The notes beneath the pieces were generated by a model. The model was not told the origin of the DNA. It was given only the letters and a program-made list of their open reading frames with translations, and made no database searches. Below are positions 58,061-59,304 of a DNA stretch of 64,000 nt, piece by piece. Location: positions 179,734-243,733 of the forward strand of contig CALAJV010000001.1 of NCBI GenBank assembly GCA_937922805.1. The letters are read 5' to 3'. The DNA is from an uncultured Acidimicrobiales bacterium (GTDB lineage Bacteria > Actinomycetota > Acidimicrobiia > Acidimicrobiales > SZUA-35). A program made the translations under genes and the position numbers. Numbering within the stretch: the stretch's first letter is position 1; every line of letters begins with the position of its first letter.

Positions 58061-58765
58061 ATGAACAGTAACCACGGCGGAGATCACAAACACAACCATT
58101 CTCACGGCCATAGCCACCAACACGGACACGCCAACGACCAAGGGCTATCTGGCATGGTTCGTTATCTTCGCCACGCCCCGAGAATGTGGCGCTCGACAGT
58201 TAACCATGCCGCCGTCGAGCTGTTAGCCCCGCAACCTAACGAGACTGTTCTCGATATCGGCGCTGGAATGGGCGCTGGGGCCATGGTCGCGGCCAGAAAG
58301 CGGGCGAAGGTTATCGCCATAGAACCAACGCCGTTCCTCCGTAGGGTACTTTCGTTCCGACGTTTGCTACAGCGAGCTCGGAAACGAATTTTGATAGTCA
58401 ACGGTGCGGCCGAGAACCTTTCAGTTGACGCCCAGTCGGTTGATGCCATCTGGTCGGTAAACACAATGCATCATTGGGTAAACCAAGCGGATGCCGCCGC
58501 CGAGATTGTCCGAGCTCTTCGTCCTGGTGGTCGGCTGCTTTTGATCGATGAGGACTTTCAAGATCCGACCCACCCTGAATATGAGGCGTTCGGGAAACAC
58601 AACAAACACGACAGTGATGAAGCCGACAACACCCATCACGGATTCACGATGGTTGATGCCGATGAGATGGGCAACCTGTTGACCGAAGCCGGTCTGAGTT
58701 CGGTAACGGCTGATAAGCAATCAGTCGAAGGCCGCCCAGTAATCATGGTTACTGGCACCGCCTAA
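58061..58765 (+). CDS. Class I SAM-dependent methyltransferase with a His-rich N-terminus
   Basis: VLDIGAGMG, GAAENL, HHW and LRPGG motifs; 9 His in the first 23 aa. Confidence 0.88.
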   Translation: MNSNHGGDHKHNHSHGHSHQHGHANDQGLSGMVRYLRHAPRMWRSTVNHAAVELLAPQPNETVLDIGAGMGAGAMVAARKRAKVIAIEPTPFLRRVLSFRRLLQRARKRILIVNGAAENLSVDAQSVDAIWSVNTMHHWVNQADAAAEIVRALRPGGRLLLIDEDFQDPTHPEYEAFGKHNKHDSDEADNTHHGFTMVDADEMGNLLTEAGLSSVTADKQSVEGRPVIMVTGTA

Positions 58766-58821: not shown

Positions 58822-59304
58822 ATGGCGGATGAACCTTCTCCACGTTCTCCTGGTTCCAGCCAGACCCGAACTCGAGAATGGGTAGCTGTCGGCGTAACCG
58901 TCGTTTTCACCCTCTTTTTCGTCTGGCGGTCATTGCTAAATGGCCAACGAGTGTTCCCGGTCATCTTGGTTTTCGGACTACTCGGACTGATCTGGTGGTC
59001 TTGGCCGGGACAACAAAAGGGGCCTCACGTTAGCCACCAGCAAGCCTTGCATCAAGCAGGCAAAAACGGCACTGTAATTTATTGGCGACCTGGTTGAATC
59101 TATTGCGCCAAGCTCAAGGCTGGTTTGGGCTCGGCGCGCCATGACGTGTCATGGGTGAACATTTGGCGAGACCCTGAAGCGGCAGCAGTCGTTCGTGAGT
59201 ACCAACAGGGCAACGAGACGGTTCCTACGGTTATCAACGGCGCCGGCAAGATGCTCGATCCAACTCCGCAAGCGGTAAAGGCGCAATTGGCAACCAAGCA
59301 CTAG
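58822..59304 (+). CDS. Membrane-anchored glutaredoxin/mycoredoxin-like protein, probable selenoprotein (UGA 59095-59097 = Sec, UxxC)
   Basis: Two TM helices, then VIYWRPG-TGA-IYCAKLK...WVNIWRDPEAAAVVREYQQGNETVPTV to TAG at 59302; the frame is intact past the UGA; downstream hairpin; TAGACT -10 lies 6 nt before the ATG. Confidence 0.8.
59105..59137 (+). promoter_or_regulatory. Candidate bacterial SECIS element
   Basis: GCGCC-A-AGCTCAAG-[GCTGG]-TTTGGGCT-C-GGCGC; the G-led apical loop begins ~21 nt after the UGA. Confidence 0.6.

Follow-up and report, generated by a model that had tools for sequence, protein, structure and literature searches.

A putative membrane-anchored, mycoredoxin-like selenoprotein encoded across an in-frame UGA in an uncultured Acidimicrobiales bacterium

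Introduction

In an uncultured Acidimicrobiales bacterium (GenBank assembly GCA_937922805.1), a short reading frame ends at a TGA that falls exactly on the first cysteine of a glutaredoxin-like active site, which raises the question of whether this codon is a stop or specifies selenocysteine (Sec), and what the full-length protein would do. The stretch analyzed here, referred to as the window, is 64,000 nucleotides long (contig CALAJV010000001.1, positions 179,734 to 243,733), and all positions below are counted from its first letter unless a contig is named. Here, we report a computational analysis of this gene, its homologues and the selenoprotein set of its genome.

Gene and reading frame

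The gene (58822..59304, plus strand) runs from an ATG to a TAG at 59302-59304 and shares its layout with orthologues of 148 to 156 aa. Read with TGA as U, the frame contains one TGA (codon 92) and gives 160 aa with the motif VIYWRPG-U-IYC, exactly as placed by the original prediction; its TGA and open-frame coordinates and its TVP motif (located at 59218-59226) were all reproduced. The TGA (59095..59097, plus strand) aligns to an invariant-type Cys and would encode Sec92, the attacking residue of a UIYC site; the codon at 59104..59106 (plus strand) encodes Cys95, the predicted resolving cysteine from frame reading and homologue alignment. The ORF lister ends the gene at 91 aa, as does a near-identical entry of the protein collection (P0002), in line with the expectation that standard pipelines would miss the gene. 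A match to PF00462 spans the TGA (residues 85-138; 37.6 bits against a gathering cut-off of 22.9), so the continuation of the frame is not a matter of chance. The gene is real and is cut short by gene callers.

Confirmation of the TGA in raw reads had been proposed; the codon is covered, with no other letter, by contigs from three samples, although these are assemblies rather than raw reads, all from one study, and one of them may be the source of the window. One contig covers the entire stretch and has 12 differences, all away from this codon. At 58932-58935 (codons 37-38, far from the TGA), three bases of the window differ from the contigs of two runs.

The local neighbors encode a prephenate dehydratase, a methyltransferase, a Usp protein and an MFS transporter, and a promoter and terminator scan gave nothing above chance. 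The methyltransferase (58061-58765; class I, His-rich at its N-terminus and near its C-terminus) stops 56 bases upstream on the same strand and is possibly co-transcribed; it is not a conserved neighbor in the locus comparison. That comparison (32 loci, most reaching about 1.5 kb on each side) found no conserved neighbor among Sec loci. Four Cys forms of the window's clade (L025, L072, L089 and L090) have in common a divergently oriented upstream gene, methyltransferase-like (SAM) by eye, that the Sec forms do not share.

Conservation and selection at the TGA codon

Genome and metagenome searches returned 113 distinct homologous loci, after removal of six duplicates and of four rows without a readable codon (one of which visibly has Cys). 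The codon at the catalytic position was TGC in 72, TGT in 16 and TGA in 25, and never TAA or TAG. In G003, G019, G052 and G543, the TGA inside the match is not at the catalytic position; TAG or TAA occurred in weak matches from G030, G107, G134 and G754, some of which were examined. The window's clade (clade A) comprises 28 distinct loci, 20 with TGA (the window gene and 19 other orthologous loci) and 8 with Cys, the former drawn from 14 genomes (genera g1 and g5) and 6 metagenome contigs. No match from outside family f1 had TGA at the catalytic codon; of the genomes searched, 39 of the 301 from the class and 37 of the 401 from the phylum gave a match.

All 20 clade TGA genes remain open for 67 to 83 codons after the UGA, with no indel up to the VP and an identical distance to it. 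Selection past the UGA, which the original prediction had singled out as a check, was purifying (mean pN, 0.26 versus pS, 0.68; median dN/dS, 0.21; maximum, 0.48; 127 of 190 pairs measurable, the other 63 saturated). Given 20 conserved open frames and low dN/dS, a nonsense mutation cannot explain the TGA.

Sec machinery and selenoproteins of the genome

Genes for Sec insertion were expected elsewhere in the genome, and selA, selB, selC and selD are all present: SelA (343.5 bits), SelB (278 bits) and SelD (363.7 bits) exceed their family cut-offs, as does a tRNA-Sec (score, 65.4; anticodon TCA), and selD itself has one in-frame TGA. All 19 genomes with a TGA-type homologue carry selA, as do 35 of the 36 family members searched; because selA is near-universal in the family, its co-occurrence with a TGA homologue is weak evidence.

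Sec genes were screened with a dicodon coding model, which replaced a single-codon model that was too weak, followed by family scans of the candidates. Known redox families accounted for 19 of the 20 tested candidates (17 by Pfam and 2 more by NCBIfam); candidate L163, without a family match, was rejected. The genome (G000; L010, L158-L177) carries at least 21 Sec-type genes, a lower bound that includes SelD, FdhA, five AhpD/CMD/YciW-like proteins, three of the UGSC family, two BCP peroxiredoxins, two TlpA/Trx-like proteins, WAxxUGC, SelL-related, Prx-like, ArsC, DUF3179 and DsbA-like proteins, and the window gene. Record counts of 46 to 63 are given in Table 2 of PMC13326102; at well below these, the richness seen here is notable rather than extreme. 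For a sister order, the Actinomarina preprint (10.64898/2026.04.03.716425) gives about 5 predicted selenoproteins per genome.

Two further Sec genes of this genome were noted. L159 (G000:C1:70014-70688, minus strand) is Rv2466c-like (PF22234, 141 bits), has TGA at its attacking Cys (UPWC) and a hairpin of -23 kcal/mol, and belongs to the mycoredoxin-2/mycothiol-dependent nitroreductase family; it is likely a second mycothiol-linked selenoprotein. The SelL-related gene (G000:C10:438366, plus strand) ends at a second TGA; the context resembles CxxU, and 221 further codons stay open past it.

SECIS hairpin

A hairpin at 59104..59138 (plus strand; 14 pairs) fits the bacterial SECIS model, which calls for a loop of 3 to 9 nt with G in its first two places, 16 to 37 nt after the UGA, a stem of at least 4 bp and an energy of at most -7.5 kcal/mol (PMC13188914, section 5). 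Its apical loop GCUGG (59119-59123) lies 21 nt after the UGA, and the energy is about -21 kcal/mol (-21.0). The hairpin is more stable than synonymous recodings of the same stretch (z, -2.9; p, 0.01) and than 99.4% of 1500 Cys-codon controls. A loose test that admitted suboptimal folds did not discriminate (13/20 Sec orthologues, 4/8 Cys orthologues and 49/80 other Cys genes), so a strict minimum-energy version was used instead. The strict test was passed by 20 of the genome's 21 Sec genes, the window gene among them, versus 235 of 1500 Cys codons.

Among the relatives the signal was weaker: 11/19 Sec orthologues passed, as did 4/8 clade Cys orthologues and 21/80 other Cys genes; mean stability z was -1.15 in Sec orthologues versus -0.47 in Cys orthologues. 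PMC13326102 (section 11) reports canonical SECIS elements in 87.4% of its entries, which places 11/19 on the low side. RNAalifold found no common SECIS across the 19 Sec orthologues, the loop register shifting between subgroups. A further small hairpin, which covers the HDVSW codons, is found repeatedly but was not taken as a signal, as a Cys gene has it too besides several other genes.

Reading of the UGA

The stop lies exactly at the catalytic Cys and is kept in relatives, on which grounds UGA codon 92 is almost certainly decoded as Sec, as had been proposed; the Sec machinery, the TGA/Cys homologues and the purifying selection downstream are consistent with that proposal. A competing reading, in which the TGA is a true stop (pseudogene, sequencing error or split gene), is very improbable. 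It would need one base change (TGY to TGA), and gene callers do report the 91-aa product and, in relatives, separate C-terminal pieces (P0002, P0140, P0218), but such a piece alone would be without the attacking residue. TGA recurs, moreover, in 20 genes with synonymous sites near saturation, an intact frame and dN/dS of about 0.2 behind it, and persists in the contigs of three samples, one of them differing at 12 other sites. Equally remote is a genome-wide reassignment of UGA to Trp or Gly, or its readthrough as Cys, which might be suggested by the roughly 21 in-frame TGAs in conserved genes of the genome. The code is not reassigned, since TGA remains the terminator of 281 of the 1007 reading frames longer than 450 codons. 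TGG usage is normal, the tRNA with anticodon UCA is of the Sec type, and the in-frame TGAs occupy the places of catalytic Cys residues in redox families.

Evolution of Sec and Cys forms

Two trees were examined. In a 134-row tree (catalytic column masked; quick tree search), membrane-anchored and soluble forms separate (SH-aLRT, 97), and the starred branches force at least three Sec/Cys changes. A 56-row full-length tree was rooted on other two-helix forms; its bootstrap was not fully settled, and seven of its clade rows are database proteins in which the catalytic codon is not visible. There the window's clade has support of 100/98, its first branches are Sec with Cys members nested among them, and seven Sec/Cys changes are needed, at least five of them forced by starred branches. 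The simplest reading would be one gain of Sec at the base of the clade and several later reversions to Cys. Three genomes (G015, G070 and G071) each carry one Sec and one Cys copy of the clade.

Five more genes with a catalytic TGA lie on other branches, and 4/5 pass the strict SECIS test. L033 (G017) falls in a second two-helix clade, L043 (G011) and L094 (G076) have hydrophobic N-termini on soluble-type domains, and L070 (G008) and L071 (G006) are without a helix. Within the mycoredoxin-like family, Sec is seen on three or more separate branches and, among the genomes searched, only in this Acidimicrobiales family.

Protein architecture and topology

Two transmembrane helices are predicted, in keeping with the two-helix anchor proposed for the protein: helix 1 at about residues 21-39 (58882..58938, plus strand; hydropathy peak, AlphaFold helix 15-39) and helix 2 at about residues 44-62 (58951..59007, plus strand; hydropathy, AlphaFold helix 44-60). 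Helix 2 ends in a W-W-x-W-P motif common to many orthologues, in which P62 is at least 90% conserved. A glutaredoxin/mycoredoxin-like domain follows (residues 84-160; 59071..59301, plus strand), recognized by PF00462, by TIGR02200 (E, 3e-15, below cut-off) and by its likeness to Mrx1 (2lqo). Its TVP motif (59218..59226, plus strand) holds the invariant Pro135, predicted to be cis from frame reading, homologue alignment and comparison with solved proteins. The AlphaFold model, built from a 121-row alignment with Cys put at position 92, has the helices 15-39 and 44-60, a short helix 72-79 and the glutaredoxin domain (mean pLDDT, 89.4); assignment to the glutaredoxin domain, a thioredoxin fold with cis-Pro, follows from the PF00462 score together with the model and a fold search.

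The protein's own inter-helix loop carries two Arg, which leaves its topology ambiguous from the window protein alone. In most orthologues, Arg residues precede helix 1 and follow helix 2 (WPGRRG-type), and the loop between the helices is short and either neutral or acidic; this pattern favors both termini inside.

Proposed function

The original prediction called the protein mycoredoxin-like; the resemblance holds, and membership of the mycoredoxin family TIGR02200 does not (56.2 bits against a cut-off of 89.5; 49.7 on DNA). TIGR02200 is nonetheless the sole NCBIfam family matched by all 121 aligned homologues. Among solved proteins, Mrx1 is the nearest by sequence (E, 2e-5) and, among the structural matches listed, has the highest target TM-score (0.73; identity, 36%; rmsd, 2.3) and stands fourth by E-value. 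It shares with the window protein a G-N-x-T-V-P-T segment, the glutaredoxin fold, a CxxC-type site at the start of helix 1 and the cis-Pro in TVP. Mrx1 is a small soluble protein with CGYC, unlike the window protein, which has two N-terminal membrane helices and Sec for the attacking Cys (UIYC).

The source organism may make mycothiol: MshD is over its cut-off, and MshA (378 bits), MshC (415 bits) and Mtr (532 bits) each have a single clear best match, all below curated cut-offs. GshB gave no match near its cut-off (68 versus 299 bits) in this 94%-complete genome. The genome's best TIGR02200 match (71.4 bits) is a separate soluble mycoredoxin-like paralogue, L087 (G000:C16:24729-24947, minus strand), with a monothiol CPFS. 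According to PMC6178380, Mrx1 uses its exposed first Cys to reduce protein-mycothiol disulfides and depends on mycothiol, Mtr and NADPH for its own recycling; its substrates include a membrane-associated peroxidase.

From the likeness to Mrx1, the matches to mycothiol genes in a genome with no GshB match, and the orthologue charges, we propose a membrane-tethered reductase facing the cytoplasm with Sec92 as its nucleophile. In this mechanism, SelB-GTP-Sec-tRNA would bind the hairpin behind the UGA, which would be decoded as Sec to give the UIYC active site, and the two-helix hairpin would put both ends in the cytoplasm and hold the glutaredoxin domain at the inner face of the membrane. The Sec92 selenolate would attack the disulfide of a substrate; the most likely substrates are proteins at the membrane, peroxiredoxins for example, in the form protein-S-S-mycothiol. 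Either Cys95 or a second mycothiol would then resolve the Se-S-mycothiol intermediate, and the cycle would be completed by mycothione reductase with NADPH, as it is in Mrx1. If selenium were lacking, translation would yield a 91-aa anchor with no active site.

The separate parts of this proposal differ in strength. The protein is probably a thiol-disulfide reductase that faces the cytoplasm, and mycothiol is a reasonably likely reductant; the mechanism as a whole, with mycothiol coupling, cytoplasmic orientation, membrane tether and Sec, is likewise favored with some reserve. That a genuine Sec protein instead takes its electrons from thioredoxin reductase or some donor other than mycothiol, as an NrdH- or Trx-like enzyme acting on disulfides of membrane proteins, is unlikely but deserves weight: the Mrx1 family cut-off is not reached, UIYC replaces CGYC, NrdH matches are present though weak (E, 1e-4), and the msh (MshA, MshC) and mtr matches fall below their cut-offs. 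Set against it are the place of Mrx1 as best solved relative and, among the structural matches listed, top by target TM-score and identity, the shared G-N-x-T-V-P-T and the MshD match. A smaller chance still attaches to a Sec protein whose domain faces outward, in envelope disulfide chemistry of the DsbA/DsbC/CcdA type. The membrane anchor and the two Arg of its own inter-helix loop would suit that orientation, but a two-helix hairpin places the domain on the side of the N-terminus, the orthologue charges (Arg on either side of the helix pair, loops neutral or acidic) point inward, and the domain is of the glutaredoxin rather than the DsbA/TlpA type.

Relation to known systems

The catalogued bacterial Sec-glutaredoxins are known as soluble proteins. 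They resemble the window protein in having UxxC on a PF00462 domain, catalogued as such in Table 1 of PMC13188914, and an in-gene SECIS, and examples from Geobacter, Alkaliphilus and Moorella are given in PMC1794560. The window protein is, by comparison, membrane anchored, mycoredoxin-type and encoded in a genome without a GshB match, unlike glutaredoxins described as GSH-dependent in PMC13188914. The UXX-star families (NF041212, NF041114, NF041211 and NF047338) also have a small glutaredoxin-like domain with Sec and match weakly by HMM, all far short of cut-off (best, 39.3 bits against 66), and the protein is not a member of them; the window protein differs in its anchor and in having no Sec near the C-terminus (TGA at codon 92 of 160).

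The same layout is seen in Actinomycetota two-helix proteins with Cys (Streptomyces, Nocardioides, Ruania and Kribbella), which share YWRPGCxxC and 35 to 50% identity. Known only by automatic names as "glutaredoxin domain-containing proteins," they form one branch of 63 rows (SH-aLRT, 97) and are all Cys in those sampled, unlike the Sec clade, which is a separate branch (100/98). A literature search on membrane-anchored mycoredoxin returned no functional study of these Cys forms, and searches made mostly at the level of abstracts returned no paper on a Sec subfamily that is membrane anchored and of the mycoredoxin type. The strings "Actino" and "Acidimicrob" are absent from the main text of PMC13188914, and the available text of the Actinomarina preprint never uses the word "redoxin." The BSepDB survey, as far as its available description goes, covered Acidimicrobiia genomes, and BSepDB may hold these genes under Grx. 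A membrane-anchored, mycoredoxin-like Sec subfamily with repeated Sec/Cys switching is apparently undescribed, within the known class of glutaredoxin-type selenoproteins.

Significance

The analysis corrects a gene truncated at its UGA and adds a subfamily that no matching NCBIfam model covers at cut-off, in an Acidimicrobiales lineage that is rich in selenoproteins. If the donor is mycothiol, Sec catalysis would be linked to the actinobacterial thiol buffer, for which no report was found in the literature searched. More tentatively, and with rather less than even confidence, marine Acidimicrobiales may run a selenium version of the mycothiol relay, in which a membrane-anchored Sec-mycoredoxin works beside a Sec Rv2466c/Mrx2-like reductase of the same genome, Sec having been gained in the mycoredoxin-like family at least three separate times and lost to Cys several times. 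If so, they would be the first mycothiol-coupled selenoenzymes, and would come with natural pairs of Sec and Cys paralogues within single genomes. G015, G070 and G071 each carry both copies, a clean case for Sec/Cys evolution in which the benefit of selenium can be measured on natural pairs.
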